Below are positions 3,432-33,932 of a stretch of DNA of 33,932 bases, in pieces. The notes under the pieces were generated by a model, which saw only the letters and a list, made by a program, of their open reading frames with translations, searched no databases and had not been told where the DNA came from. Both the position numbers and the translations under genes were made by a program. Numbering within the stretch: position 1 is the first letter of the stretch; each line of letters begins with the position of its first letter. Source of the DNA: Clostridia bacterium (lineage in GTDB: Bacteria > Bacillota > Clostridia > Christensenellales > UBA1242); NCBI GenBank assembly GCA_028702545.1, contig JAQVOQ010000001.1, forward strand, positions 1-33,932, read 5' to 3'.

Positions 3432-3458
3432 AAAATCGCCTTATTTTAAAGCGATTTT
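3432..3458 (-). terminator. Rho-independent terminator of the mazEF-like operon
   Basis: Stem aaaatcgc / gcgatttt overlaps the mazF stop. On the minus strand UUUUU follows. Confidence 0.55.
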
Positions 3459-3798
3459 ATAAGTAACCTAAACTAATAAGCATTGCGTTATTAACTTGCT
3501 CCATTTTATCTATGCCGAGCATACCTATATGCTCTTGCAGACGCCTTTTGTCTATTGTGCGAATTTGTTCTAGTAAGATAACAGAATCTTTGGGAAGTCC
3601 ATAACTCTCAGCATCAAGTTCTATATGTGTTGGCAACTTCGCTTTGTTTATTTGACTAGTAATTGCAGCGACTATAACAGTTGGACTATATTTATTACCT
3701 ATGTCATTTTGCAGTATTAAAACAGGTCTAACTCCTCCCTGTTCGCTACCTATAACGGGGCTTAAATCCGCATAATATAGTTCGCCTCTTTTAATCAT
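3457..3798 (-). CDS. mazF: MazF/EndoA (PemK family) mRNA interferase toxin
   Basis: Close to B. subtilis EndoA/NdoA along its length: '[26 protein letters not shown]', '[17 protein letters not shown]', '[17 protein letters not shown]'. Confidence 0.93.
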
Positions 3799-14809: not shown

Positions 14810-16711
14810 TTATCTTTCATTTGAACTGTCTTTTTCAGTTGTTTTAACAGCAGCTGATAACATCTTTTTAAAATGGGTATCTGGTGTTAAAGTACAATTA
14901 GATTTATAATAATAATCTTTAAATAATTTATAGCCTCTTACATGAAAATTGCCATCCCTGCATTGATATTCTTTAGGATTTTTATCAATATCTGCTATCA
15001 TTTCTTTATATAAAACATTTGCCACCTTATTCATATCAACGCCACTTTCTTGGCATTTTTCAATATAGCACTTGCTGTATCTCATTGCAGGAACTTGAGA
15101 TAATTTAATTTTTCCAAGTAGATTATCGGATAAAAACTTTCTTAATTTTTCTTTTGCTACTTCTGCATTTTTACCATTTTTATCCGTTAAAGGAATTTGA
15201 TCTGTTTTTGCTTCTGCTTTTGCCTCTGTTTTTTCTTTGTCAGTTAATTCTTTTTGTTTAGCGGCTTCTTTCATAAGTCTTTTATATAATTCTCTTTGTC
15301 TAATAATATCTTGTTCTGCAGAAGATATATTAACTTTTTCTTCCTCTTTATTAAACTCCTTTTGTGCTTTAAAGTCAAAAGAATATTCGGCTTTTGAAAA
15401 AATTAATTCATCAATAGATTGAGCATTTTTTACATTCCTGCCCGTTTTAGCATAAAGCTCTTGTAATTTGTCAAAATCTAATAAGCCTGCTTCTTGATAA
15501 TTATTTTTACTTACTTGCAAAACTTTTTCCGAAATATAAGGCAATATCCAACTAGAATGTATTTTTGGTATTCTTGCAAGTTGCATAGAAGCTTGAAGTT
15601 GCAAATGATCTTCAACTTTTTTAAATGTAGTGCCTTCCATATAAATTCTTGCTTGATTTATTGTGGATAATAATGAAATAACTTCATTTAATGTATTTTT
15701 ATATTCAATAAACTTTGCTTTATCTTTCTTTAAATTTTTATAAGGATTAAAATTTTCGCCTTCTTCATTAACTGTTCTAGAGATAAAAAATTTTTTTGCC
15801 TCCCTATAACTATCGTCAAAAATAAATAAGCGCTTTTTTGTTAAAGCTTTTTTATTTAATTTATACATAGCAGAAACAGCAATTTCAGTATTGCTCAAAC
15901 TCTCATCCGAAATTAAAATATTTTTTCTGTCTATTACAACATCATCGGCTTGTGCATAAATTTTAGTCGTCACATCAAGTTTATATTTTTTTGCTTTAAG
16001 CGATTCAATAAAAGCATCATATTTTGGAAAATTTCTCTCTTGCTCATTTAGAATTGGCTCATTAGTATAATAATCTTTAATTGGCATTTCTAAAATATTG
16101 TTATATTTATAAAACTGAACAGATGCCCAGTCATAAACAGGTTTTTCTATATCAGATGGATTTTCTTTGTTATAAAAAGATTTAGCATCTCTTGCCAAAA
16201 ACAAACCTTTTGCTCTAATATCTTCTTCAGTTAATAATTGGCTATTATCAATTTTGTTTTCTTGAATCCTCTTATATTGTGTTAGGGCAACAAAATCACT
16301 AGCACTGTATTTTTCTTGCTTAAATGCAACTCTTCGAGCTACTTTTTCAATTTGAGGCTTATATAATTCAAAAATACTTACCATTTCTTGATTTTTTGGT
16401 TCTATATCATAATCATAAGCTTCCGTAATAAAGCTAACTAATCCATCAAAAGTATTAAAAGGAATGCCGCTATATTTTGATAAAAAAACACCTGCATTTC
16501 TTTCGTTAATATTATTATCATGTAAAACTTTAACTACAATATTTTCCAAATTAGCGCCTGAATTGGCAATATCTTTATCTTCTTTACTCTCTCCAAGCAT
16601 AGTAAAAGCATCCCAGCCAGCATTATATAAATCTTCATATTTTTTTGGCATTGGACTGAAATGACCTCTATGTCTTAAAAATTGTTTTTCTTGTTTTTTG
16701 TTTAGTTCCAT
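14810..16711 (-). CDS. large cytoplasmic hypothetical protein associated with the T4SS cluster
   Basis: 633-aa ORF with an AGAGGT RBS. It has no TM segment or signal peptide. A Lys/Glu-rich coiled-coil segment ('RELYKRLMKEAAKQKELTDKEKTEAKAEAK') is followed by a C-terminal Cys/His cluster (C-x4-C ... C-x5-H). The family is not recognised. Confidence 0.6.
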   Translation of the reverse strand: MELNKKQEKQFLRHRGHFSPMPKKYEDLYNAGWDAFTMLGESKEDKDIANSGANLENIVVKVLHDNNINERNAGVFLSKYSGIPFNTFDGLVSFITEAYDYDIEPKNQEMVSIFELYKPQIEKVARRVAFKQEKYSASDFVALTQYKRIQENKIDNSQLLTEEDIRAKGLFLARDAKSFYNKENPSDIEKPVYDWASVQFYKYNNILEMPIKDYYTNEPILNEQERNFPKYDAFIESLKAKKYKLDVTTKIYAQADDVVIDRKNILISDESLSNTEIAVSAMYKLNKKALTKKRLFIFDDSYREAKKFFISRTVNEEGENFNPYKNLKKDKAKFIEYKNTLNEVISLLSTINQARIYMEGTTFKKVEDHLQLQASMQLARIPKIHSSWILPYISEKVLQVSKNNYQEAGLLDFDKLQELYAKTGRNVKNAQSIDELIFSKAEYSFDFKAQKEFNKEEEKVNISSAEQDIIRQRELYKRLMKEAAKQKELTDKEKTEAKAEAKTDQIPLTDKNGKNAEVAKEKLRKFLSDNLLGKIKLSQVPAMRYSKCYIEKCQESGVDMNKVANVLYKEMIADIDKNPKEYQCRDGNFHVRGYKLFKDYYYKSNCTLTPDTHFKKMLSAAVKTTEKDSSNER

Positions 16712-16789
16712 AAATACCTCTACCCTAAAGAGTTTTATTCATAAATAATATAACACAGCTTTATCAAAAATGCAATACCTAAAATAAAA

Positions 16790-16806
16790 GCACTTTTAAA
16801 AAGTGC
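16790..16806 (-). terminator. Rho-independent terminator after the virB4-like gene
   Basis: Stem gcacttt / aaagtgc with loop taa. On the minus strand UUUUAUUUU follows. Confidence 0.5.
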
Positions 16807-16812
16807 ATCTAT

Positions 16813-19482
16813 TTAATCGTTGTCTTCTACTTCTTCTTTTTTAAGTTTTTCAAACAAATCTCTAACCGGTGGCAAGGCGACAATACTAACCCTTGTCCTG
16901 CTTATTGGGCTAGTTATCAAGAAGGCTTCACCTCTACCAGCTGTTGCAATATTATCTTGCTCGTCTTCGTTAATTCCACCAGCGTTTCTATAAAGTGCTA
17001 CTAAATCGCTCATATCATTTGGTGATAAACCAAATATCATAGAGTATTGGCTCGCATTAATAACAGCAGCAGATTGTTTTGCAATTTCTTCACTACCAAC
17101 AAAGTCTTTAATATTTTGAGTGATTATTATCTGCATACCAGAATATTTTCTAATACGCTTAGCCATTGTTTCCATAAAGTTAAGTGCTATTGGATAATCT
17201 TTGTTAATAAATACGTGTGCCTCATCAACTGTTATAATAACCTTACGCCTATTAGGGTCTTCTTCTCCAAAGCCCATCATAGTGTTAAACTCTTTATTTT
17301 TGATAATTTCGTTGTTTAGATATCTCAAAACTAACATCATTTGTGCATTTGCTATAACCATATTATTGTTAGATAATAGCGACCTAAAACTAAATGTAAC
17401 AAAGTTTTCTTTAGTTTCTAGGGTTGTTAGTCCATTCCAAAGATTGGAGTTTCGTCCACCTGTTGAGAATTTTTGAATATAAGTTTCAATAATTTGATAC
17501 ATTCTTCTTATGTATTCATCTTTTTCTTCCTGAGCTTTTTTATCTATAATTTTATATAAATCATCAAATACTGGAAAGTCACTGGGCTTTAACTTGGTAA
17601 TATCAGTTGCCTGATTTATGCCTTTTGATGCGTACATATCAGATACTAAAGTATTAACTTTTTCAAAAGCATCCGATGAGATTCCTTGTAAAATTACCCT
17701 AAAAAATTGCTCTAAAAACTGAAGATGCGAAGAATAATCATCCGTCATCGTTACTCCTTCACCTTGAAGAGATGGCGTGATATGAAAAGGATTAATACGA
17801 CCTTGCAAACCCGTTCCAACGTCTATTGCTTGACCTTTAAGGTTTTCGGTTAAAATTTCATACTCATTTTCTGGGTCAAGAATAAATATTTTGCTGTTAT
17901 CTGCTGCTAAATTGCTAAGTAGAGTTTTGGTAGCAAAGCTTTTACCACTACCAGATTTACCAATTATCATCATATTAGAGTTAACGCGCTCGTTATCCCT
18001 TCTAAAAAAGTTTACAAAAACTGGTCCAAAATCGTTATGTCCTATATAAAATCCACCTTTATCCATAAGTGCACTGCTAATAAATGGGAAAGTAGCCGCT
18101 AGTGATGAGGTGTGAATACCTCTTTTGTTTTGATTTATAGTGTCCAGTCTGCTAATATTAGAACTTATAAAACAATCCACTTGCCTACCAAACATTTCCG
18201 TATATTTAAAACCCTCTTGCTTTAACAAGATTCTAACTTCCTTTTTCATCTCATCTTCACAAGTTATATAGATATTTACATCAAATAAATTCTCATTTCC
18301 TGTTTTTAATTCAACCAACAATTGCCTCAATGTAGAAAGGTGAGTTTCATTTTCAATTTGAGTACTTGTTTTAACAGAATATAATGTTTTTGTTTCCATT
18401 TCTACAAGCGCTTTATCTATCATTTTTTCTGCTTCATATTTTAATATTGGCTTAATATTAACTACTACTTTTGTATTAGGAAGTGCAAACATAGCATATG
18501 CCCATGCATTTCTAACCGTAATAGGATAATCTGTTATGCCAAAAGTACGATAAGATTTTTTATCTATAATAGTTTGATTCGCTTTAAAAGTAATATTTTT
18601 TGGCATTGTCCAATCAATAACTTTATCCATTGGCATACCTTCAAGTTCGCGCTCATCAAAGTCTTTTGTATAATTCGCCTTCAAAAACACTGCAAGCTGT
18701 TTATCTTGCAAATAATTAGTGTAAATAGGAATAGAACTATTGACCAAGTATCCAATAATACCATCAACAGTAGATTGTAAACCCAGTTTGTCGCTATCAT
18801 AAATAACCAAATAAAAATGGTCCCTATAAGTCCTCTCAACACTATTTATATAGTTCATAGTAGAAACACGGTTTTCAAAAACCATACTTCTAGCCTCAAC
18901 TTCTTCTTTTGAAATTTCGCCCCTATCGCCCATCTCTAAAACAACTTCATACTTACGGTCTTCATTTTGTATATAATCATCAAGAAGAAGTGGCTTATTA
19001 ACTTTTATCAAACTAGCCGTTTGTGAAGAATTAAGCCTACGAAGAGCATTTGCAAAGGTGTCAATTAACAAATTTTGCTTTTGTTCTGTCAATAAAAAGA
19101 ATTCTTTTGGTTTAATTTCTATTACTTGTGCAAAATAATTATCATATTTTATGTATTTACCGTTGACAATTTCTTTATATGGAATAAGCTCTTTAATATC
19201 GGTATGTTTATCTTCCTCTATTTTGCTATACTTTCTTTTAAATGCTGCAAATCTAAATAGTAGCACAAGCGAATAATAAAGTTTTAAATCATCTGTAACA
19301 GGTACAAATAAAGTAATTATTATACTAAGCCAGCTAACTGCAACGATAATATTATAATCAAAATTGGAACTCAAAATTAAAAGAAGTCCAGCGCCACCAA
19401 TTAACCCTAAAATAACATCAATTAATGTAACGCCTTTAAAGAATTCCATCTTTACTCTTGTTTTTCTTGGTATAAATCTCAT
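16813..19482 (-). CDS. VirB4/TrsE/TraE-like T4SS ATPase with a fused N-terminal two-TM (VirB3/PrgI-like) segment
   Basis: Walker A 'MMIIGKSGSGKSF'. 'IFILDPENEY'. Walker B 'KVIITVDEAHVFI'. 'MQIIITQNIKDF'. Residues ~18-75 contain hydrophobic helices (VILGLIGGAGLLLILS and IIVAVSWLSIIITLFV). Confidence 0.88.
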   Translation of the reverse strand: MRFIPRKTRVKMEFFKGVTLIDVILGLIGGAGLLLILSSNFDYNIIVAVSWLSIIITLFVPVTDDLKLYYSLVLLFRFAAFKRKYSKIEEDKHTDIKELIPYKEIVNGKYIKYDNYFAQVIEIKPKEFFLLTEQKQNLLIDTFANALRRLNSSQTASLIKVNKPLLLDDYIQNEDRKYEVVLEMGDRGEISKEEVEARSMVFENRVSTMNYINSVERTYRDHFYLVIYDSDKLGLQSTVDGIIGYLVNSSIPIYTNYLQDKQLAVFLKANYTKDFDERELEGMPMDKVIDWTMPKNITFKANQTIIDKKSYRTFGITDYPITVRNAWAYAMFALPNTKVVVNIKPILKYEAEKMIDKALVEMETKTLYSVKTSTQIENETHLSTLRQLLVELKTGNENLFDVNIYITCEDEMKKEVRILLKQEGFKYTEMFGRQVDCFISSNISRLDTINQNKRGIHTSSLAATFPFISSALMDKGGFYIGHNDFGPVFVNFFRRDNERVNSNMMIIGKSGSGKSFATKTLLSNLAADNSKIFILDPENEYEILTENLKGQAIDVGTGLQGRINPFHITPSLQGEGVTMTDDYSSHLQFLEQFFRVILQGISSDAFEKVNTLVSDMYASKGINQATDITKLKPSDFPVFDDLYKIIDKKAQEEKDEYIRRMYQIIETYIQKFSTGGRNSNLWNGLTTLETKENFVTFSFRSLLSNNNMVIANAQMMLVLRYLNNEIIKNKEFNTMMGFGEEDPNRRKVIITVDEAHVFINKDYPIALNFMETMAKRIRKYSGMQIIITQNIKDFVGSEEIAKQSAAVINASQYSMIFGLSPNDMSDLVALYRNAGGINEDEQDNIATAGRGEAFLITSPISRTRVSIVALPPVRDLFEKLKKEEVEDND

Positions 19483-19594
19483 AGAAAGCTCCTAAAATTT
19501 TGTAATATATATTTATTGTTCGTAAATTTTATAACATTATAAGTAATTATACTAAATATTTACAAAAAACACTACTAAATTAAACAGCAAAAAA

Positions 19595-19616
19595 AACCTT
19601 AAATTTCTTTAAGGTT
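19595..19616 (-). terminator. Rho-independent terminator after the VirB6-like gene
   Basis: Stem aaccttaaa / tttaaggtt with loop tttc, flanked by A- and T-runs. Confidence 0.65.
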
Positions 19617-19630
19617 TTTTAAAATTATTC

Positions 19631-21889
19631 TTATTTCTTATTGTCTGTATTGACTGTATCTTTTGTCTTGCTAATAAACTCCTTTAAGTCCTGAGCAATT
19701 TTTTTATTTCCACTTATTCCGCCATCATAATTTTTTAATTTATCAACATTCTTTTTCTTGTTTTCAATGATGTCGTCTAGACTTAAATCCAATGTTTTCA
19801 TAGCGCTTTCTAGCGTTTTTACCCCTTTTTGTTTTTGCTCATATTCTTTTGTATATATTTTTTCTTCTTGTTGTAATTTTTTTATTTGTGCTTTCTTTGC
19901 AGCAACAGTTTCTGGTGTTAAACCTCTTGTTCTTAACCCCTTATCTTCATTAATTTCATCTTTTATTGAATTAATTTCAGATTGAGTATTTGTAAGTTTT
20001 GCTTTACTCTCATCCACATATCCGCTCTTTGCTAAATTTAAAGTTGATTCTGCAGTAAGTGGAACATCGTTTGCTTTGTTGCTATCATCTGCACCACTAG
20101 TAGTACCTTGTTTACCTTCAAGCGCTTTAATCAGTTTTTCGTTTCTTAAATCAGCAGCTAACTCTGGTCTTTCACGATTTGATCTATCCTTTGTAGCTTG
20201 AGCAGCAGCAGATAACGGCATTAATTTATCAAATCCTAAGTTCTTTCCAAAACTAGATTTTTTAAAACTTTCAAAACGATCAGCTTTATCTTTTAAGAAG
20301 CCAATTCGATTGCCTTTATTATCTTTGCCAAATCCAGCAAAGTTTTTAGCACCTTTTGCAAACTTATTTCCCATATTGGCAGCATTCTTAAATGGAGTAA
20401 CAAGGCCTGCTCCAACTCCCTTTGATGCTGCTTGCATCCAGTTTAATCCATTTGCTCTTGAATTTTTGAAACCTGAGCCTACAGCCTTCACAGCACCTTT
20501 TTGAAGTGCAAAACCTGTAGCGCCAATGCCTGTTCCAAGTGCAACTGCTTTTGCTGCAGTTTTTGTAAACGCTTCTGCCTTACCAGCTCCATCTCCAAGT
20601 ACATCGCTTGCACCTATAATGTCAGCTAATTGTTTAGAAAAGTCTTTAAAGAATACTGCTCCTCCAATTAACATCAATAATTGTGCTATTAAATTAAATA
20701 CTTGATAAGTAACTGCTACTACGGCAGAAGTTTCCGAATCAATTTGGAAAAAATCTATTTGACCGAGTATTGGAATCAACATTATATAAAGATTCATAGT
20801 AACGATAACCGCATAAATACTCAAAGTGTTAGAAATAAATGCTTTTTTCCAATTTTTATAAGCATCTTCATTGATGGGTGTTATTGCAATAATTGGTGGA
20901 GCTATTATAAATAACATAACTAAAGCATAAATACGTTTAATTAAACCAAGTAATACCATTAACATAATCGTAAGTAGCATAATAGTTACACCAATTGCTA
21001 CAAAAAAGTTAAAGTTACTTAAATCATAATAATACCAAACCAAACTATAATCATATATTGAAAATGATTCTGGGTAATCTGGTAATCCTATCGTTTTGTA
21101 AACAAAGGACAAAATATCATTTAATGTAACAGGATCAAAGTCTTCACCAGTAGGTGCCAATGTATTATTTTGAAAAGCATTGTCAATTTTATCGGCAACT
21201 GTTTCAATAATAAAACCAGTATTAGTGTCCTCACTAAAAAGGCCAAAGTTATTCTTGGTAGATAAATCATCTAAAAATTCTTGGTCAAAAGGACCAACGC
21301 CCTCTCTTGCTCTATTAGATTCATAAGCAGCTGCTGCGAATATACGACCACTCAATTTTGAATTTGCACCACTAGAAGTCGCCATATCAAGCGTACTTAA
21401 AAGTGCATTACCTATAAATAACCCTAAAATTGCAACAACTGGAACAGTTGCAAAAATTGCAACGCTTTTTAATGATTTTCCTATTATTTTACCCTTACTA
21501 TTACCGCCTTTTGCGTCAAGCGGTTGATATTCACTTTTTATTACAGCAACAAAAGTTGAAATAAGAAGCAATACTATTGATAAAATAGCAAGTGACCAAA
21601 AAATATTCATTACGGCCTGATTGTTAATAATCTCTAATGCTAAATCTCTTGGTTGAGCTGTTTCAACACCATTAACTACATAATTTTCCAAGCCTGCTAA
21701 TTTTCTAAACAATAGTTGAATGACATCAAGTATTGTAGCAAAAGCCAAAAATATAGTATAAAACCAATTGGCTAAAAGGGCTAAATAACCATCAATTAAA
21801 TATTGAATCCAACCTGCGATACCACCGACTATACCATCTACTATGTCGCCAAGACCTGCAAGGTGGCTTATTCTCCATCCTAAACCCAT
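19631..21889 (-). CDS. polytopic membrane protein, VirB6/TrbL/TcpH-like T4SS channel candidate, with a long hydrophilic C-terminal extension
   Basis: 752 aa with a GGAGGAG RBS. At least 6-8 hydrophobic helices lie in residues 1-430. A Gly/Ala/Lys-rich segment follows ('GAGKAEAFTKTAAKAVALGTGIGATGFALQKGAVKAVGSGF...'), then a coiled-coil-like tail. The call rests on topology and its position next to virB4. Confidence 0.5.
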   Translation of the reverse strand: MGLGWRISHLAGLGDIVDGIVGGIAGWIQYLIDGYLALLANWFYTIFLAFATILDVIQLLFRKLAGLENYVVNGVETAQPRDLALEIINNQAVMNIFWSLAILSIVLLLISTFVAVIKSEYQPLDAKGGNSKGKIIGKSLKSVAIFATVPVVAILGLFIGNALLSTLDMATSSGANSKLSGRIFAAAAYESNRAREGVGPFDQEFLDDLSTKNNFGLFSEDTNTGFIIETVADKIDNAFQNNTLAPTGEDFDPVTLNDILSFVYKTIGLPDYPESFSIYDYSLVWYYYDLSNFNFFVAIGVTIMLLTIMLMVLLGLIKRIYALVMLFIIAPPIIAITPINEDAYKNWKKAFISNTLSIYAVIVTMNLYIMLIPILGQIDFFQIDSETSAVVAVTYQVFNLIAQLLMLIGGAVFFKDFSKQLADIIGASDVLGDGAGKAEAFTKTAAKAVALGTGIGATGFALQKGAVKAVGSGFKNSRANGLNWMQAASKGVGAGLVTPFKNAANMGNKFAKGAKNFAGFGKDNKGNRIGFLKDKADRFESFKKSSFGKNLGFDKLMPLSAAAQATKDRSNRERPELAADLRNEKLIKALEGKQGTTSGADDSNKANDVPLTAESTLNLAKSGYVDESKAKLTNTQSEINSIKDEINEDKGLRTRGLTPETVAAKKAQIKKLQQEEKIYTKEYEQKQKGVKTLESAMKTLDLSLDDIIENKKKNVDKLKNYDGGISGNKKIAQDLKEFISKTKDTVNTDNKK

Positions 21890-21999
21890 AATGCTCCTCC
21901 GTTGTTAATTTAAACTTGCCCAAAAATATGATAGATTTTGCATATTAATTTACTATACAGTTATTATAGCAATAATATTTTAATTTGTACATCTTTTTT

Positions 22000-23712
22000 T
22001 TACTCTACTTGTGGAGTGAATGAAATATCTATAAAACCAAACCTAAACAATATTGGATTTGTGTTTATATCTCCGCTTAAAGATGTTGCACTAAAAACAA
22101 TCTCAAAAAAGTCAGTGCTATTATCATTATATTTTGCTAGACTTGAAACTCCATCTTCCGCTTTTTCTACTATAAAATAATCGGCGGCTGGCGTTGTGGT
22201 GTTTAAAACGACAGGTTCATCAAAACTTTCTGTGTTATTAGTAAAAGATTGCAAGTTAGAATTTGATAACCCATAAGTATTCAATATATCTTGAATATCT
22301 ATCTCAAAATCGTTGTCATTATCCGAAATATCATAAGCGCCGCCATTTATTAGTAAAGTAGTTAAAACATCGTCAAAAATTATTCCCTCGCTAACTTTAT
22401 GATAACGAGCAGTTATCTCCAAATTAAAACTTCTAGTTGATTCAAACGCTAACCAAACACTATCTAAACTAACAGCTTGACTGTTCATAAAAATTAAGCT
22501 TTTGTAACATTGCATACCCGTCGGTATAGTAAAAATTTCGTCTAAATTAGACTCAACATCGGCAAATATAAAATCTTGATATTGTATTCCTGCAATTTGA
22601 GGATATCTAACAGTGTTTTCGCTAATTGTCGTTATTATTGCATTTACGGTGTTGCGATAGTTTTTAAAATATTCATCTATAAAGTCGTAAGCACCACCTA
22701 ATGGCACTCCGCTATCCCACTCATCATTATTGTTCAAATCATTATATTTTTCGCCTGCATCAAACTGACCATTCGGTATTGAATCTATAAACTCCTCAGC
22801 ATCAAATAAACCATTATTATTTACATCAATAAATCTTTCAACATCAAATTCAACTAAGGTATTACCTATTACAACATTTAAAATAAACTGACCTAGCTTG
22901 TACATTTCTTCTTCTAGCATTCCAATATAAGTTATTTCTTTTGCAAAATTTTCTTTTAATGTTTCTTTTTCGCCTAAACTCAATTGAGTATAAGAAATAT
23001 ATTCGTTATAATCGCTCGTGCCAATTTGATATATGTTTTTGTTAAGCTTTAACATATAAATAGCTATTTGCAAATTGTCTGAATGAGCTGTTAAAAAAGC
23101 GTCAATATAATCGGCAGGATTGTAATTTTGAACGAGCGTCCAATTCCAAGTATAATATTGATCAACACCCGTATTATAATAATCTTTTCTTACAGCATCT
23201 TTATGTGCATACTTATAATCAACGCCGTAACTTGCTGGAACAGAGTCAAACGGCTCAAAGCCATCTGCATAAATATCCTCAAATTGTTGAATACCGTTCA
23301 CATAGTAATAAAGCCTATATCCACCTAATCCAATTCCGTTACCATATTCCGACATAAGTCTAATAATAACTTCTTTGCTCATAGTATTAATTTGGCTTTT
23401 AACATCATTTATATAACCGATTTTTTCTGGACTGCCCGACAAATCGCCCGACAAATCAGGATTATATGTTATTTTAACGCCATCAAAATAATCACTATAA
23501 GCATAGCTTTCCGTCTCACCTGGATTATATGGATCAAATGGGTCATCTGGGTCAACTGGGTCATCTGGGTCATCTGGGTCAACTGGGTCAACTGGAACAT
23601 AAATATCTCCTGTACCTCCGCCACTAGTACCGCCCGGAACACATCCTGTTAACATAATAGGACTTAAAATCAAAATAATTATTAAAGTAAAAATATAAAT
23701 TTTTTTTAGCAT
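22000..23712 (-). CDS. surface lipoprotein of the T4SS cluster
   Basis: Signal peptide with lipobox 'IMLTGC'. A Gly-rich stretch and a Pro-x-Asp tripeptide linker follow. An internal 'FIDVNNNGLFDAEEFIDSIPNGQFDAGEKYNDLNNNDEWD' resembles a set of Ca-binding loops. AAGGGGA RBS. Confidence 0.8.
   Translation of the reverse strand: MLKKIYIFTLIIILILSPIMLTGCVPGGTSGGGTGDIYVPVDPVDPDDPDDPVDPDDPFDPYNPGETESYAYSDYFDGVKITYNPDLSGDLSGSPEKIGYINDVKSQINTMSKEVIIRLMSEYGNGIGLGGYRLYYYVNGIQQFEDIYADGFEPFDSVPASYGVDYKYAHKDAVRKDYYNTGVDQYYTWNWTLVQNYNPADYIDAFLTAHSDNLQIAIYMLKLNKNIYQIGTSDYNEYISYTQLSLGEKETLKENFAKEITYIGMLEEEMYKLGQFILNVVIGNTLVEFDVERFIDVNNNGLFDAEEFIDSIPNGQFDAGEKYNDLNNNDEWDSGVPLGGAYDFIDEYFKNYRNTVNAIITTISENTVRYPQIAGIQYQDFIFADVESNLDEIFTIPTGMQCYKSLIFMNSQAVSLDSVWLAFESTRSFNLEITARYHKVSEGIIFDDVLTTLLINGGAYDISDNDNDFEIDIQDILNTYGLSNSNLQSFTNNTESFDEPVVLNTTTPAADYFIVEKAEDGVSSLAKYNDNSTDFFEIVFSATSLSGDINTNPILFRFGFIDISFTPQVE
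23540..23595 (-). repeat. in-frame 9-nt tandem repeat (about 6 units: gggtcatct/gggtcaact) encoding a (P-x-D)n linker
   Basis: Direct reading gives gggtcatct gggtcaact gggtcatct gggtcatct gggtcaact gggtcaact. It translates on the minus strand to 'PVDPVDPDDPDDPVDPDDP'. Confidence 0.85.
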
Positions 23713-23839
23713 AACTTCCCCTTTAACATAGGTGCCGACTTTGATTTTATTCTTTTATTTAATTTAGTATATCACATTTTAAAAAAAATTCAAGAATATG
23801 TATAGTTTGTTTTAAAAAAATATTTTTAAAACACGAAAA

Positions 23840-23864
23840 AACCTAAGTCTACAAAACTTAGGTT
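23840..23864 (-). terminator. Rho-independent terminator after the VirB2-like gene
   Basis: Stem aacctaagt / acttaggtt with loop ctacaaa. On the minus strand UUUUU follows. Confidence 0.65.
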
Positions 23865-23892
23865 TTAGTTTATAATTTAAAATAATTGAGGT

Positions 23893-24252
23893 TTATGAAA
23901 TCCAAGCGCCTAAGTTAGCTTTAAATAATCCTAATAATAAAATTAAAACAATTGTAATTACAAGTGCAATAACTGCATTTATAATACGTTTTTTAGCCTC
24001 TTCTCTTTTGTCAGCAGTTTCAGCTTTTGCCATATTAACACCAAGAACAACCGCATAAATAGTTCCCGCTGTTGCAACAAAAATTAGTAGTGGTGTTAAA
24101 ATACCATCTAATGCACTCATGATTGGATTTAAGAAAGCAAGTGATCCCGTAAATTGTTCTGTTACTTCATCATAATAATCAGTTGCTCCCAAAAGACTTC
24201 CACCTGTTAAACCTGTTACAAAGGTTGCAATTTTAAATAAAAGTAAGTTCAT
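23893..24252 (-). CDS. VirB2/TrbC-like small T4SS membrane (pilin-like) protein
   Basis: 119 aa with an AGGAGG RBS. It has a signal-like N-terminus ('...GGSLLGA/TD') and then two hydrophobic helices separated by a charged loop, 'MAKAETADKREEAKKRIINAVIALVI'. This architecture is typical of Gram-positive/CPR T4SS pilin-like proteins. Confidence 0.55.
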   Translation of the reverse strand: MNLLLFKIATFVTGLTGGSLLGATDYYDEVTEQFTGSLAFLNPIMSALDGILTPLLIFVATAGTIYAVVLGVNMAKAETADKREEAKKRIINAVIALVITIVLILLLGLFKANLGAWIS

Positions 24253-24533
24253 TATAATTTCCTCCTGATGTTGTGTAACTAGCTTATTCTTAGTTTTATA
24301 AAATTAAAAATAACTATTCAATAAAACACAAAAATATTTTCAAACTAAGTTAATTATCATTATTTTAGCACATAAAATAAAATTTGCAAACTTTTTAAAC
24401 AACAAAAATTTAAAAAATTTAAAAAATTAAAGTTTAAATTAATTTGGCTTTTAAATTAATTTATGCTATATTATTTTTAGTTATTTTAAACTTTTTTATA
24501 CTTAATTCTAAAAACAAGAAAAGGGGAATTTTA

Positions 24534-26570
24534 ATGGATAGATTTATAAAATTTGTTATTAAGTTCGTTGCATTAATCGTTATATCCTTTGGAATAGCAG
24601 TAATGATAAACTCATTTTTAACCTTTGGAACCTTTGAATTTGAAGTTACACTTTTAACAGATTCAATGACGCTAACGATTGCGGCACTACTAGTTTTGTG
24701 CATTGTAATATATTATTTGAACAAATTAACAAAAGAGGATTCCTTTAGTGGCACATCCTCTCATAAAAGCCGAACAAAAGATGGTAAAGATTTAGAACAA
24801 TACTATAATTCTCGACTAATTAACGAAAAAGAACTTAAAACGGAATCTAAATTTATGTATCATTTATATGGAAACCTAAAAACCTCTAAAAAAGATGGTA
24901 TTCTTATTAGAGCAGAATATAAAGGTAAAAAACTTCATGTAAATATGTATAAACCTATTCACGCAATGGTTGTAGGAACTACCGGCTCTGGTAAAACAAC
25001 AACTTATGTTAGCCCCACAATTCAAGTTTTATCTGAGACTGCCTCTAAACCAAGTATGATAATCTCTGACCCTAAGGGCGAGCTTTATGATATGCACGCA
25101 AATAAATTAAAAAATTCTGGTTATGATGTTCAAGTTATTGACCTTAGAGAGCCCGATAAATCAGCGCGCTGGAATCCACTTGATAGAGCCTATGATTTTT
25201 ATCAAAGAGCACACAATTTGACTAGCGAGATTTTAGTTCATAGAGCTTCTAATCCAAATAAATTTCCAAAACTTCAAAAAATGAACAGCGTTAGTTATGG
25301 AGAGGAATGGTATGAGTTTGACGGAGTAGCCTACCCCGACAAAGCAACGCTAAAACATGCAATTACAGCACTTAATGCTAAATTAAAAACTCAATCAGCA
25401 AATGAAGTTGAAGATATCGCCTTAACTCTATGCCCTGTTACAGGACAAGACCCTATGTGGAGTATGGGTGCACAAGGCTTTATTAAAGGAATTTTGCTTG
25501 CAATGCTTGAAGATAGTTTAATACCGGAAGTTGGTATGACAAAAGAGCGTTTTAACTTTTATAACTTAGAAAAAATAGCAAGTAAAAGAGATATTAATCA
25601 AAGTGATACACTAGAAACTTTAAAAAATTACTTTGCAGGGCGTGACAAATTATCCCCTGCAGCATCAGGTGGTAACAACGTTGTTCAAAATGCACCTAAT
25701 ACTGCAAAAGGCTTCTTAGGTCATGTAAACTCTTCAATTAAAATGTTTACAGATGCCGGTGTTTGTTATCTTACAAGTGCAACAGATATTGACTTTAAAA
25801 ACATTGCAACAAAACCTAGTGCAATATTTATTAAAATTCCTGATGAAAATGCAACTCGTCACCCACTTGCAAATATTTATATCAGTCAGCTTTACAAAAT
25901 TTTAATTGAACTTGCAAATGAAAGACAAGAACTATCACTTCCAAGAAATGTTTACTTCGTACTAGACGAGTTTGGTAACTTACCAAAAATTGAAAAAATT
26001 AAAAGTTTTGTTACAGCAGGTCGTAGTAGAAGAATTTTCCTAGTAATAGTTGTACAAAGTTTTACACAGTTAACTTCAGTTTATGGAGAACAAGATGCAG
26101 CGACTATTAAAGAAAACTGTAACATTCAAGTATTTATTGGAACAAAAGACCAAAAGACAAAAGAGGAATTCAGTAAAAACTGTGGAAACGTAACCGTTGA
26201 AATAGAAAACAAATCAAAAAGTAATCAAGCAGGAACTAAAGAGCAACACGGCAGCACTTCAACAACTACTAGTTCAAACACTGTTTCTCGTCCACTTATT
26301 TATCCTGAAGAACTTGACCATTTAGACAGAAGCAAAGGCGAAGCAATTGTTAATATGTTCTCAGAATTTAGTATAAGAAGTATATTTACACCTACTTACA
26401 AATGTCCAGTTTATGATATGCGAAGAGTACCTGAGGTATACAAACCATCTGGTTATCTAAATGAACAACAAGTATATTACGATGTTGTTAATAGAAACAA
26501 CATTGTTTTAGGTAGCGGAGATGATGATGACGATGACGATTTTGACTTCTTTAAACCTAAAAAGAATTAA
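24534..26570 (+). CDS. VirD4/TraG-family type IV coupling protein
   Basis: Two N-terminal TM helices. Walker A 'MVVGTTGSGKTTT'. 'MIISDPKGELY'. Walker B 'YFVLDEFGNLPKI'. 'AGRSRRIFLVIVVQSFTQL'. The start was moved from the track's TTG (24444) to the ATG at 24534, which is preceded by AAGGGGA. The C-terminus is acidic (seven consecutive Asp). Confidence 0.88.
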   Translation: MDRFIKFVIKFVALIVISFGIAVMINSFLTFGTFEFEVTLLTDSMTLTIAALLVLCIVIYYLNKLTKEDSFSGTSSHKSRTKDGKDLEQYYNSRLINEKELKTESKFMYHLYGNLKTSKKDGILIRAEYKGKKLHVNMYKPIHAMVVGTTGSGKTTTYVSPTIQVLSETASKPSMIISDPKGELYDMHANKLKNSGYDVQVIDLREPDKSARWNPLDRAYDFYQRAHNLTSEILVHRASNPNKFPKLQKMNSVSYGEEWYEFDGVAYPDKATLKHAITALNAKLKTQSANEVEDIALTLCPVTGQDPMWSMGAQGFIKGILLAMLEDSLIPEVGMTKERFNFYNLEKIASKRDINQSDTLETLKNYFAGRDKLSPAASGGNNVVQNAPNTAKGFLGHVNSSIKMFTDAGVCYLTSATDIDFKNIATKPSAIFIKIPDENATRHPLANIYISQLYKILIELANERQELSLPRNVYFVLDEFGNLPKIEKIKSFVTAGRSRRIFLVIVVQSFTQLTSVYGEQDAATIKENCNIQVFIGTKDQKTKEEFSKNCGNVTVEIENKSKSNQAGTKEQHGSTSTTTSSNTVSRPLIYPEELDHLDRSKGEAIVNMFSEFSIRSIFTPTYKCPVYDMRRVPEVYKPSGYLNEQQVYYDVVNRNNIVLGSGDDDDDDDFDFFKPKKN

Positions 26571-26582
26571 TTAATCTTTTTA

Positions 26583-26610
26583 AAAACCTCATAATATTTG
26601 AGGTTTTTTT
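26583..26610 (+). terminator. Rho-independent terminator after the coupling-protein gene
   Basis: Stem aaaacctc / gaggtttt with a 9-nt loop, followed by a T-run. Confidence 0.7.
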
Positions 26611-26710: not shown

Positions 26711-26739
26711 TTGTTAATAGAATTTTAATATGATAAAAT
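26711..26739 (+). promoter_or_regulatory. candidate sigma-A-type promoter for the giant ORF
   Basis: TTGTTA, a 17-nt spacer containing an extended -10 'TGa', then TAAAAT. It lies ~60 nt upstream of the ATG. AT-rich DNA produces such matches by chance. Confidence 0.3.
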
Positions 26740-26801
26740 ATATTAAATATTATGTTAAAAATAAGTTACTTAAGACAACCGATTAAGGAGAATACTAGTA
26801 T

Positions 26802-29800
26802 ATGAGAATAACTATAAAAAATAAAGGCTTAATAGTATTAATGTTTATAGTGGGCATGTGCACACTTATTGGTGGCAATATAATTTTTATGAATATTGGC
26901 ACAAATATAGCAGGTGCAGTAGAGGCCGATAATACAGTTCTTACGGTACAAAAAGTTTTAAGAGATGTTGACCAAAATGACAATGACATAACGAATGGTT
27001 ATTCTTATTTGGCGTCAACAGAGGTTGGCAACTATACGCACTTAAACTCTATTGCCAATGATGCTTTTGAGATGTTAAATAATAATGCAGCAGATGAATC
27101 TTTAATAGCCGGAACAGCGGTAGAAAATGTTAAAGTAGAAAACATATTAATTAAATTTGCAGATAGTTACGGAAATGGACTTCCTTGGTTAACGGCTTCT
27201 GCTTGGTTAAATGGAACTCCAATAGATGTTGGCTCAGCTATGATAATTGAAACAAATGGAGACAAAAAATTCACTCACTCACTTGACTTAAAAACATTAG
27301 CTACCCTTGAAGGTCAACCTATTGAAAATTTAGATGGTTACTATGAGTATCGCTTTAATTATTATTACAGAGATAGTTATGGTGCTACTTATGGCGAGTA
27401 TACAAAAACAATTGCATTTTGGCTTTTAGATGAAAACAAGTATGTTGACACAGCGCTTCAAAATAATATTATTCCTAAAATGTATAATACAGAAAAAATA
27501 AATAGAGATAAATATGACAAAAAAATAGAACAAAATTTTTTTAACTATAATAATTTTAATATGACCGATACTTACGACTCAGGCGAAGTCTTGTTATTGC
27601 CTACTTTAATCTATGACGCTAGTAGATACAATATTTCTTACACTAAGCAAATTTATGGTGTTACTAACACTATAACTTCTAGTTTTAAAATATTAGGTGA
27701 TACAGGTCAAGTAACTTTTTATTTAAACGGTGCAACCGCTCCTTTTAAAGCTGATTATGTTAATAAAACAACCGTTGGCGGAGTTGATTATTTCATTTAT
27801 GACGGACTAAACATAAATGATGTCGCCGATTATAATTTTACAGTCAAATATACATATAGAGTTTCAGATACAAATTTTGTTATCGCTACAACAGGTAGTA
27901 TATATGAGCCAAGCACTAGAGGTAACAATGTTTTGTTGTCAGTTTTTGGCTATCAATCATATTACTCAAAAAATAACACAGAGGATGCCGAATTTAAATA
28001 TAGCGACGAAACAACAACTATCATAAGCGACTATACAAAAGATAATCAACTTTACATAGAAAATTATGACACTACTAGTTATAGAAGCGGCGAACTATTT
28101 ACCGATGCAAATGCAGATGGCGTTTATAATCCAGCAGAAGAATTTACCGATGCAAATTCAAATGGTGTTTACGATTTTGCCGAAGAGTATGTTGACGCAA
28201 ACGGAAATGGTGTTTACGACCCTGCTGAAGAGTTTATTGATGCAAATGGTAACGGAGTATATGACACTTTAGCTCTGCAAATTAATGGTACGCTAGCTAG
28301 CACAAATCAAGCACCTGTATTTTTAAAAAGCTATGGCTCGCTAAAATATGATTCAACTTTCACTTCTTCAAGGTCTTTTTACTATTACTATTCAAGTGGA
28401 ACAAAAACTGGTATTCCTCAAATAATACCTTACACAAATAATACTCGCTTTACACAAAACGGCTATTATGAAGTTGTTGTAATTTATGATTTTGAAAAAT
28501 ACCAATATATAAATAGTACTGACGATGTAACATCAGGCAATAAAGTTGCTCATATGCAAGTTTTTGCATTTAAGATTGCAAACATACCTCCAACGGTTAA
28601 CATTAAAACAGATACAAATCAAACGATAACTAGTGGCAAATATACAAATGCCCCTTATGTAACAGCAAACTGGACAGATATTGGCGTTTTTGATGTTGCA
28701 CCTAACGCTAGAATTTGGAGACAAAGTTTTGATGGTTATAATCCATATACTCAAAGTTCCCTATTTAATGGTTCTTATGATAACGTTAATGGACAAGTTT
28801 ATATTAAAGATAGTCAAATTGCAATTAGTGGTCACTATATACTACAAATCTTTTATGGTCCTTCAACTAATACCTCAATTATTTATAAATTCACAATAGA
28901 CCAAAGTGCTATTAGTGGCTTTAGTGTTTTAGGAACTAAAGAAAGCGTAGACGAAAACGACAATATAATTCCACTAAAAGACACAAGCCTTGATTTAACA
29001 AATAAAACTGTTATCAACACCCCCTTTACTCTAAATTGGAATTCAAAAACTTCAGGTGCTGCAATAACAGCAAAATATAGCATTACATCTATTGCCGAAA
29101 AAGCATCTTATACTCCTACTTTAATAGAGCAAAATGGTCAAGAATGGATAACCAATGGTTATCAAACACTAAACACATTTAATAATTTAACTTATTACAA
29201 AACAAACACAACAGGAACGGATATATTAAATCCAAACTCAGTATTAAAAAACGCTAGCATATATTATTTTACTTTAACGGATCAAGCGGGCAACTCTTTA
29301 AATTATTATGTTATTTTAGATGACTCGCAAGCTCAAATATTGCAAGACCCTGAGGCCGTTTCTAAATATAACTTTGTGCCAACTAAAACGACTATCACTT
29401 GGGGTACACATAAAGCTATTGAAATTTCTCCTACTTCTAACTTACCTGCTAGTATAACAACAGATAACCCATTATTTGATACTTACGCTGGTACGCTTTA
29501 TTTAATAGTACCAATTGAAGTGGTAAAAGTATACGCCGCTGGATTAACTGACTCTGACCAGTTAACAGTTGAAAATAGTTATGACTTAAGCGATATAGAA
29601 TCAAACAAAATAAGAACTTATACAAGGAATGTTAATTTTAGCAGTTCGGCAACTTTTTACACGGGCTTAGAGCCTTTTATTCCAGCAGGAAACGAAGATG
29701 TTACTGGCGAAAATATTTATAATACTTATGTGCTAGATTATTCTAGTACTACCCCCTTCACTAACTCAAGTTACAATAATATTTCTATGCTAGACTTAAA

Positions 29801-33932: not shown

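Follow-up and report, generated by a model that had tools for sequence, protein, structure and literature searches.

The stretch of DNA analysed here, referred to as the window, comprises 33,932 nucleotides of the Clostridia bacterium contig JAQVOQ010000001.1 (assembly GCA_028702545.1), and the subject of this report is a giant gene at its end, which lies directly downstream of, and on the same strand as, a gene for the coupling protein of a type IV secretion system (T4SS). The giant open reading frame (ORF) occupies positions 26802..33932 (+), has full-length homologues, and remains open through base 33932; its last 107 residues and the stop codon lie beyond the window end. The initial annotation had claimed an uninterrupted 7.1-kb coding frame from the ATG at 26802 and had named automated translation as a check that could refute it. 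This translation yields 2,377 codons with no stop, whereas each of the other five frames contains 178-296 stops across the same interval. The base composition of the region gives a per-codon stop probability of 0.071, at which a frame this long would stay open by chance with a probability of approximately 4e-77. The coding status claimed for the frame is thus supported by this value and by full-length colinear homologues. The composition of the product, described earlier as rich in Asn, Thr, Tyr and Ile, agrees with that description (T 10.9%, N 9.4%, I 8.8% and Y 8.7%).

The giant frame does not appear in the supplied ORF list, whose longest entry in this region is 73 amino acids (aa), the same limit as noted earlier, because the lister omits ORFs that run off the sequence end. 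On the other hand, the NCBI annotation contains it as 'hypothetical protein PHC46_00130, partial' (MDD4210790.1, 2,377 aa). Consequently, the gene is unlisted with respect to the supplied list and not with respect to NCBI, and the prediction that pipelines requiring a stop codon would miss it is only partly true. The contig ends inside the frame, and this is the sole point in favour of the idea that the ORF is no real gene and represents a chance frame or an assembly chimera. That idea is refuted by the chance probability given above, by colinear full-length homologues in at least 186 species, by an independent second assembly of the same organism (L090; ENA ERZ1645045 ctg536) that covers the giant-gene region at 99.8% identity, and by GC content and skew that match the rest of the contig, along which GC is uniform. 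The probability that the gene is an artefact is therefore vanishingly small.

An in-frame TAG at 26796-26798 precedes the ATG at 26802, which is therefore the first possible start. By direct sequence reading, a Shine-Dalgarno-like AAGGAG (26785..26790, +) is located 11 nt upstream of this ATG, in agreement with the ribosome-binding site proposed earlier. The protein begins with a predicted signal peptide (aa 1-39; 26802..26918, +), recognised by hydropathy and by the same layout in homologues, as expected from the N-terminal signal or anchor already postulated. The layout consists of a basic n-region (MRITIKNK), a hydrophobic core at residues 7-33, and a small-x-small A-G-A before V40; in the homologues, a small residue likewise stands ahead of an acidic mature N-terminus. 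This arrangement suggests that the giant protein is exported by the Sec pathway and cleaved by signal peptidase I. The only Cys in the window part of the ORF, residue 20, lies inside the hydrophobic segment, at the place assigned to it in the initial annotation. A lipoprotein reading of this Cys was rejected: the lipobox [LVI][ASTVI][GAS]C occurs in the first 60 residues of none of the 77 family members, and the context of C20 is not a lipobox.

The second assembly runs past the window end and yields the missing 107 residues and the stop codon, the 3' end that the initial annotation had proposed to find by contig extension. Since this assembly is indel-ridden, the C-terminal stretch was reconstructed after two frameshift corrections guided by the homologue P0002; it reads ...KNIMLTFNKY...SFKLIKKAPLNSVSIFLIIAAVLIVTFLTIVFIKLRTKMKVS, followed by the stop. 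With this reconstructed C-terminus, the complete giant protein has approximately 2,484 aa, a mass of approximately 280 kDa and an isoelectric point of 4.4. The second assembly is full of frameshifts, its genes are broken into many pieces, and at 14906-15221 and 16806-18331 it repeats the 3' portion of the giant gene in degraded form, with one inverted copy (87% identity) and one short direct copy (80%). These copies are most likely long-read assembly artefacts.

In every full-length member of the family, an N-terminal hydrophobic signal is combined with a C-terminal transmembrane (TM) helix and a short basic tail. In 71 of the 77 members (P0001-P0029, L008-L086), the tripeptide P-L-N is located exactly 34 residues from the C-terminus and is followed by the TM helix and then by F-I-x-L-R-x-x-M-K-V-K/R; the reconstructed end of the window organism's protein shows the same module. 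Within the tail, conservation reaches 100% for Arg, 75% for M and 79% for K. The succession of P-L-N, TM helix and basic tail has the tripartite shape of sorting signals of the sortase, exosortase, archaeosortase or rhombosortase type. The last 60 residues of the 77 members contain no LPXTG-type motif (LP.T[GAN]), and none of the NCBIfam CTERM models matches the module. Within the approximately 1.7 Mb of fetched loci, the module is found on giant proteins only. These features strongly support a type-I membrane topology, in which only approximately 9 basic residues would be exposed to the cytoplasm.

The ectodomain between these two ends is predicted to be almost entirely beta. AlphaFold models, built on 19-sequence alignments, were obtained for two tiles, aa 1-1190 and aa 1191-2377, with predicted local distance difference test (pLDDT) values of 71.6 and 80.4, respectively. 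A membrane-distal, beta-rich head (approximately aa 40-434; 26919..28103, +; AlphaFold strands 45-397) is followed by an EF-hand-like repeat insertion (aa 435-494; 28097..28283, +), delimited by Tandem Repeats Finder and motif positions, and by a stalk of consecutive Ig/FnIII-like beta-sandwich modules (aa 495-2377; 28285..33932, +), assigned by AlphaFold and Foldseek. Head and stalk together contain approximately 150 predicted strands and almost no helix, which corresponds to roughly 20 modules. In Foldseek searches against the PDB, the ectodomain matches only chains of Ig/FnIII/MG-like domains, namely alpha-2-macroglobulin MG domains, cytokine-receptor FnIII domains, titin, MyBP-C, cadherins, SiiE (2yn5, prob 0.98-0.99), and the surface-layer (S-layer) protein Sap and the grappling hook GhpA (6qx4, 9flw). 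Against viral models, only generic Ig/FnIII tail-fibre-like chains were matched. The Ig-like or beta-sandwich modules proposed in the initial annotation are thus supported, at the level of predicted structure, by the two structural checks that it had suggested.

That proposal had been based on a composite sequence motif said to recur at least approximately 10 times. The four peptide strings quoted for it are all present (aa 820, 1570, 2160 and 1264), but the full motif occurs in only 3-5 copies. Its strict D-x-A-G-N form is found at aa 827 (29280..29294, +), aa 1579 (31536-31550, +; here the YYEIIExDxAGN block is nearly invariant across the family) and aa 2168 (33303-33317, +), and two looser copies are found at aa 1264 and aa 1784. 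The strand element G/S-x-Y-x-h-x-h alone reaches 13 copies, compared with 3.3 +/- 1.8 in shuffles, and it is for this element that the earlier count holds. Self-BLAST of 150-aa tiles gave only weak matches (E = 1e-5 to 1e-2), and the 45-bp insert repeat is the sole DNA tandem repeat in the giant gene; a simple tandem-repeat build was rejected on these grounds. The modules, as far as their sequences indicate, are old and diverged.

The insert repeat has a unit of 45 bp (15 aa) and extends over 28097-28248 in 3.4-4 copies with 75% matches (Tandem Repeats Finder). It encodes four EF-hand-like loops of the form D-x-N-x-N-G-x-x-x-x-x-E (DANGNGVYDPAEE), which, from this loop pattern, we presume to bind calcium, and it is predicted to be disordered (pLDDT ~35). 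The insert is absent from the closest homologues P0001-P0003, the family gap fraction at this position is 0.56, and by these alignments it is lineage-specific. Several short matches to unrelated large proteins, some of them with type IX secretion system (T9SS) sorting domains (PF18962), show 40-58% identity over 2-5% of the query; they probably stem from the 45-bp repeat. In the family alignment, conservation increases along the protein, from 0.26-0.31 in the N-terminal 500 aa (0.14 in the insert) to 0.39-0.43 in the last 300 aa; the head thus falls into the less conserved N-terminal third, and the most distant relatives align only from approximately aa 490 on.

Family searches did not connect the giant protein to any described family. 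A Pfam scan returned no family at E <= 1, and no membership in the Big/BIg, Cadherin-like or HYR groups; NCBIfam returned nothing at E <= 0.1 for the window protein and nothing at E <= 1 for the homologues P0002, P0004 and P0012. A PHROG search gave no match, and a 15-member profile found nothing at E <= 1 among PDB sequences. Three proteins of 2,424-2,456 aa are full-length homologues, with 50-62% identity and colinearity over 99-100% of the query, and a further set of 2,660-3,044 aa shares 26-28% identity. An exhaustive HMMER scan with the C-terminal half found 120 proteins at E <= 0.001 among 1.84 billion cluster representatives, a count of approximately 120 that refers to clusters at 50% identity; those that seem to be full length have approximately 2,280-3,050 aa. 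A pattern-seeded scan, run on a single genome for each GTDB species, found relatives in at least 186 species. The best 80 of those loci, which were retained, belong nearly all to metagenome-assembled genomes of uncultured Clostridia or Christensenellales, with human, ruminant, chicken and rabbit guts as host sources and ORFs of 2,400-4,000 aa. A tblastn search of PLSDB plasmids with the C-terminal half gave no match and a scan of IMG/VR viral contigs gave no relative, which argues against a plasmid or phage origin. Literature searches found no description of the family. Judged by the LPXTG, lipobox and Pfam results, the giant proteins constitute a narrow, unannotated family outside any described adhesin family, apparently restricted to uncultured Clostridia or Christensenellales and known mostly from gut-derived genomes. 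A 3,608-aa ORF at L092:1-2773 (-), approximately 7 kb from a VirD4 homologue and on the opposite strand, matches the family N-terminal motif 'PTxxYDAS(K/R)YN' weakly (E = 0.018); it may be a very divergent member or belong to another giant family.

The T4SS genes upstream of the giant gene form a block at 14810-26570. Directly upstream of the giant gene lies virD4, encoding a VirD4/TraG-type coupling protein of the CD1115 family (24444..26570, +; Pfam PF02534, PF12696 and PF10412; NCBIfam NF045973 with 298 bits, cut-off 250). From the TTG listed as its start, virD4 would encode 708 aa, whereas close homologues have 640-676 aa and cover only 90-95%, and the true start is probably located approximately 30 codons downstream. 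Divergent from virD4 is a gene for a small pilin-like T4SS membrane protein of the Mbov_0395 family (23893..24252, -; NF045849 with 44.8 bits, cut-off 40), whose match to Pfam T4SS_pilin is marginal (26.2 bits). It is followed by orf570 (22000..23712, -), a conserved member of the block without a known family, which has one N-terminal TM helix and a 540-aa extracytoplasmic part, and by the gene for a polytopic VirB6-like channel protein of the MMCAP2_0566/Mbov_0396 family (19631..21889, -; NF045848 with 126 bits, cut-off 90; NF045889 with 84 bits, cut-off 70), which contains at least 7 hydrophobic segments. Next comes the gene for a VirB4/TraE ATPase of the Mollicutes type of integrative and conjugative element (ICE), Mbov_0397 family (16813..19482, -; NF045975 'VirB4_plasma' and Pfam P-loop_TraG). 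The ATPase matches NF045975 over its full length with 584.9 bits, just below the cut-off of 590, and has two N-terminal TM helices. The block ends, next to the housekeeping gene fba, with orf633 (14810..16711, -), which has no TM helix and no family; its sole match, to endo-beta-N-acetylglucosaminidases, is weak and unreliable (E = 0.03), and relatives carry ORFs of 880-1,030 aa at this position with no detectable relation to it. Its product may be an unrecognised wall hydrolase or DNA-processing protein of a novel kind, conceivably a divergent relaxase. All four MPF-FATA/Mollicutes-ICE-type components, VirB4, VirD4, VirB6-like and small pilin-like, are present, and the block is of the Mollicutes-ICE type, its closest curated relatives being mycoplasma ICE conjugation proteins. 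Apart from a MazF/PemK-type toxin gene at 3457-3798 (-), located amid the housekeeping genes, the other window ORFs of at least 100 aa either are housekeeping genes (fba, an M29 peptidase gene, gapdh, mnmA, degV, tyrS, recX, acpS, lgt, divIVA and others) or match no family.

The position of the giant gene directly beside virD4 raises the possibility that its product is itself a structural part of the T4SS, such as a wall-spanning conduit or sheath, or a substrate whose basic tail is recognised by VirD4. Monoderm T4SSs have no known wall-spanning conduit, and the basic extreme C-terminus is conserved in sequence and not merely in charge, as the tail residues listed above show. Some T4SS substrates carry positively charged C-terminal signals, which this tail recalls. 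However, the signal peptide and the stop-transfer helix point to Sec export and retention in the membrane, the positive-inside rule suffices to account for a basic tail, the giant gene is also found away from T4SS genes, and neither Pfam nor NCBIfam reveals any similarity to known T4SS components. We therefore consider a part or substrate of the T4SS very improbable.

By comparing the gene neighbourhoods of relatives, the relation between the giant gene and the T4SS may be assessed. Of 84 non-redundant loci, 29 have virD4 beside the giant gene, which is about half of those with enough flank to judge. In 26 of the 29, virD4 immediately precedes the giant gene on the same strand, usually with a gap of 160-450 nt; it immediately follows the giant gene in 2 and precedes it on the opposite strand in 1. 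The arrangement with virD4 first and on the same strand persists down to 24-28% identity of the giant protein. The adjacency to the coupling protein gene in the same orientation, pointed out in the initial annotation for the window, is therefore a recurrent arrangement shared by many distant relatives. Approached in reverse, from VirD4 homologues, the giant gene was found directly downstream in 3 of 5 contexts. In some lineages (L040, L089 and L091), the T4SS is split over two chromosomal loci among housekeeping genes. At L040, the giant gene follows VirB4-VirB6-orf570 and virD4 is missing; at L091, it follows pilin-virD4 and the rest of the T4SS is not there.

Based on the results presented above, we propose that the product is a giant surface fibre that acts as the contact arm of the adjacent T4SS, a proposal to which we give an even chance overall. 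Its first four steps are that the gene is genuine and conserved over its full length, that the protein begins with a Sec-type signal peptide, that it ends in the rigidly conserved 34-residue P-L-N/TM/basic-tail module, and that its ectodomain of approximately 2,400 aa is predicted to fold into approximately 20 consecutive Ig/FnIII-like beta-sandwich modules. Taken jointly, these four steps are highly probable. The chain would then measure tens of nm, of order 80-100 nm if extended, and would be long enough to cross the Gram-positive wall and project beyond it. The less conserved, distal N-terminal 500 aa, with four EF-hand-like loops in this lineage, may form the binding tip, and the best-conserved, proximal C-terminal part may serve as stalk and anchor. 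Finally, the fibre would function with VirD4, the pilin-like protein, orf570, the VirB6-like protein and VirB4, seizing a target cell and keeping it in place until it can be engaged by the monoderm T4SS channel, which is short and has no pilus. For this last step, the cooperation of fibre and T4SS, our confidence falls slightly short of an even chance. The contact-arm role is favoured because the virD4-giant arrangement is deeply conserved and because CDS14 of a mycoplasma ICE and PrgB of pCF10, both discussed below, provide precedents.

Several observations weigh against the contact-arm role. The link to the T4SS is plausible, and gene neighbourhood is its sole basis. No T4SS gene was found in approximately 28 loci whose upstream flank spans at least 3 kb (approximately 10 kb of flank was examined); conversely, at L089, pilin-virD4 lies amid housekeeping genes and no giant gene is nearby. 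The link is not obligate. Family searches recognised no ligand-binding domain in the giant protein, and both the signal-peptide cleavage site and the fibre length are inferred values. The window ORFs of at least 100 aa match no relaxase, integrase or transposase family, although two of them, orf570 and orf633, have no detectable family; together with the nil plasmid (PLSDB) and viral (IMG/VR) matches, this means that classical conjugation is not demonstrated. The initial annotation regarded the giant protein as a strong candidate for the mating-pair determinant. The adjacency and the fibre-like surface architecture behind that suggestion stand; the mating role is not established, since it follows from neighbourhood only, and conjugative mating of the classical kind is unproven because the T4SS is chromosomal, vertically inherited and devoid of a recognisable relaxase or integrase.

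The region between virD4 and the giant gene is of further relevance here. This gap of 231 nt holds a terminator-like hairpin with a T-run just 3' of virD4 (26582..26608, +) and a promoter-like site (26711..26739, +; TTGTTA, 17 nt, TAAAAT, with TG), the latter found by a consensus scan alone in AT-rich DNA, where chance matches are common. Because these two elements split virD4 from the giant gene, separate transcripts are suggested, with the giant gene as a transcription unit of its own; the hairpin in particular counts against a joint function. These signals agree with the alternative that the giant protein is a stand-alone surface fibre, adhesin or surface-coat component that works independently of the T4SS, in which case the adjacency would merely preserve an ancestral gene order and mucus, dietary particles, host cells or other microbes would be possible targets. 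A T4SS gene within approximately 10 kb is lacking in roughly half of the loci that can be assessed, conservation of the C-terminal module does not depend on whether a T4SS is adjacent, the giant gene keeps its position beside rho and ypeB regardless of the T4SS, and the Foldseek matches are generic adhesin or S-layer-like Ig chains. On the other hand, the order, strand and short gap of virD4 and the giant gene are kept at 24-28% giant-protein identity, and the giant gene stays by the remaining half of the split T4SS at L040 and L091. The latter exceeds what passive synteny would lead one to expect, because the other upstream neighbours differ. An independent adhesin is thus a serious candidate, though a somewhat unlikely one.

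The most constant neighbour of the giant gene is not the T4SS but the rho-ypeB-sleB-spoIIR-sipL-veg-spo0A block (L001, L003, L005, L015, L017, L019 and others), and part of the T4SS adjacency could therefore be synteny inherited in a region that rearranges slowly, as opposed to selection for a joint function, which is a further point against the contact arm. In the common arrangement, this block is convergent and downstream of the giant gene. The window organism conforms to it, since the second assembly shows rho and ypeB downstream on the opposite strand, as in relatives, and its interval L090:13548-14907 is among the loci where the giant gene adjoins the rho-ypeB block. In nine loci (including L031, L044, L057, L063, L068 and L079), the genes are codirectional, with ypeB(+) followed by giant(+) after a gap of 230-450 nt and no rho between them; the giant-ypeB linkage thus survives local inversion. 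This persistence, and the immediate vicinity of the block in most loci, might indicate a spore-associated giant protein, located for instance on the spore surface or at the interface between mother cell and forespore. However, in the common arrangement the sporulation genes run on the opposite strand and are usually separated from the giant gene by rho, neither a sporulation-type domain nor a sporulation-type promoter was identified, and, since gene order is kept throughout this region across the clade, the linkage may be functionally meaningless. We consider a sporulation role very improbable. The rho-like gene itself (L001:9579-10994 and equivalents) evolves faster than is usual for Rho: at 0.74, the mean distance between pairs is as high as for the giant protein, and its Pfam matches are weak or faint in several genomes.

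To return to the T4SS with which the fibre is proposed to act, a comparison of 21 loci shows that VirD4, the giant protein, Rho and YpeB diverge in step, their pairwise distances being strongly correlated (Pearson 0.83-0.88, Mantel p <= 0.0005). This suggests that both the T4SS and the giant gene have been passed on vertically as part of the chromosome. The chromosomal site of the T4SS is the same in distant relatives. Hallmarks of a self-transmissible element (a relaxase, a DDE recombinase or a variable insertion site) were not detected, the analysis covering the window and approximately 10 kb per side in relatives. The T4SS block, which sits between housekeeping genes, looks like a domesticated chromosomal system and not like an obvious mobile element. 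It is tempting to extend this to the whole clade and to suggest that a domesticated Mollicutes-ICE-type T4SS and the 280-kDa Ig-like fibre together form an organelle of cell-to-cell contact or transfer, as opposed to mobile-element conjugation; we advance this tentatively and judge it distinctly unlikely at present.

Proteins of both kinds, giant surface fibres and adhesins linked to a T4SS, are already known, and the existence of the ORF alone is unsurprising. What is new is a sharply delimited, unannotated giant-protein family whose fixed C-terminal anchor module is not described by any model, and a frequent partner T4SS that relates to mycoplasma ICE proteins yet behaves as a core chromosomal system. 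The pair of fibre and T4SS is a concrete candidate for cell contact by uncultured gut anaerobes. If the two work together, they would also suggest a candidate from which the ICE machinery of mycoplasmas may descend.

Among known systems, CDS14 of the mycoplasma ICE (ICEA of Mycoplasma agalactiae) is a surface-exposed protein that is essential for transfer, and a role in donor-recipient contact has been proposed for it (PMC6030558); a protein of this type would be expected to be complementable in trans. It resembles the giant protein in being a surface protein encoded with the same minimal monoderm T4SS type (Mbov_0395, Mbov_0396/MMCAP2_0566, Mbov_0397 and TraG/VirD4). In contrast to the giant protein, which has no lipobox (0/77) and a C-terminal TM anchor, CDS14 is a lipobox lipoprotein; it resides on a mobile ICE with a DDE transposase, whereas the giant gene belongs to a vertically inherited chromosomal locus, and the two proteins have no detectable sequence relationship. 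The giant protein is presumably also many times larger.

PrgB, the aggregation substance of the enterococcal plasmid pCF10, is, like similar adhesins of Gram-positive conjugative plasmids, a large surface adhesin that provides mating-pair contact in a system with no conjugative pilus. PrgB shares with the giant protein the property of being a large surface protein encoded with a monoderm T4SS, and differs in being plasmid-borne, about half the size and equipped with recognisable adhesin domains. PrgB is anchored by LPXTG and sortase, whereas LPXTG is found in 0 of 77 members of the giant family; the giant protein has no Pfam domain and no homologue on PLSDB plasmids, and no relaxase was recognised among the window ORFs. 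PrgB has been named as an MPF-FATA adhesin (PMC12102498).

With SiiE of Salmonella, the Sap S-layer assembly domain and GhpA, the giant protein has in common a predicted chain of Ig-like modules, and it is acidic with calcium-loop-like inserts. It differs from them in having no Big/BIg Pfam match, in its highly divergent modules as opposed to near-identical repeats, and in its N-terminal signal and C-terminal TM anchor, which replace the type I secretion system, SLH or T9SS routes. Its mode of anchoring is closer to that of Ebh, a giant staphylococcal surface protein of alpha-helical FIVAR/GA repeats that is held by a C-terminal TM helix and a positive cytoplasmic tail, with no sortase. Helix and basic tail are arranged in the same manner in the giant protein, which, unlike Ebh, is almost entirely beta and has no homology to it.

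The T4SS block is best compared with that of the Patescibacteria, which possess a chromosomal MPF-FATA-type T4SS, mostly without an associated relaxase, that is inferred to have been co-opted for a non-conjugative function (PMC12102498). In one Saccharimonadia strain, the T4SS genes are essential for epibiotic growth, and the same paper reports no PrgB-like adhesin from this phylum (PMC12102498). The window T4SS block is likewise chromosomally fixed and has no recognisable relaxase; it differs in belonging to another phylum and in that, in this Clostridia family, a giant fibre gene is frequently adjacent. If fibre and T4SS indeed work together, they would provide a second case, besides the Patescibacteria, in which a monoderm T4SS has been co-opted as an organelle of an entire lineage, and, if that organelle is domesticated as suggested above, it would be a functional analogue of the T4SS on which Saccharimonadia depend for epibiotic life.

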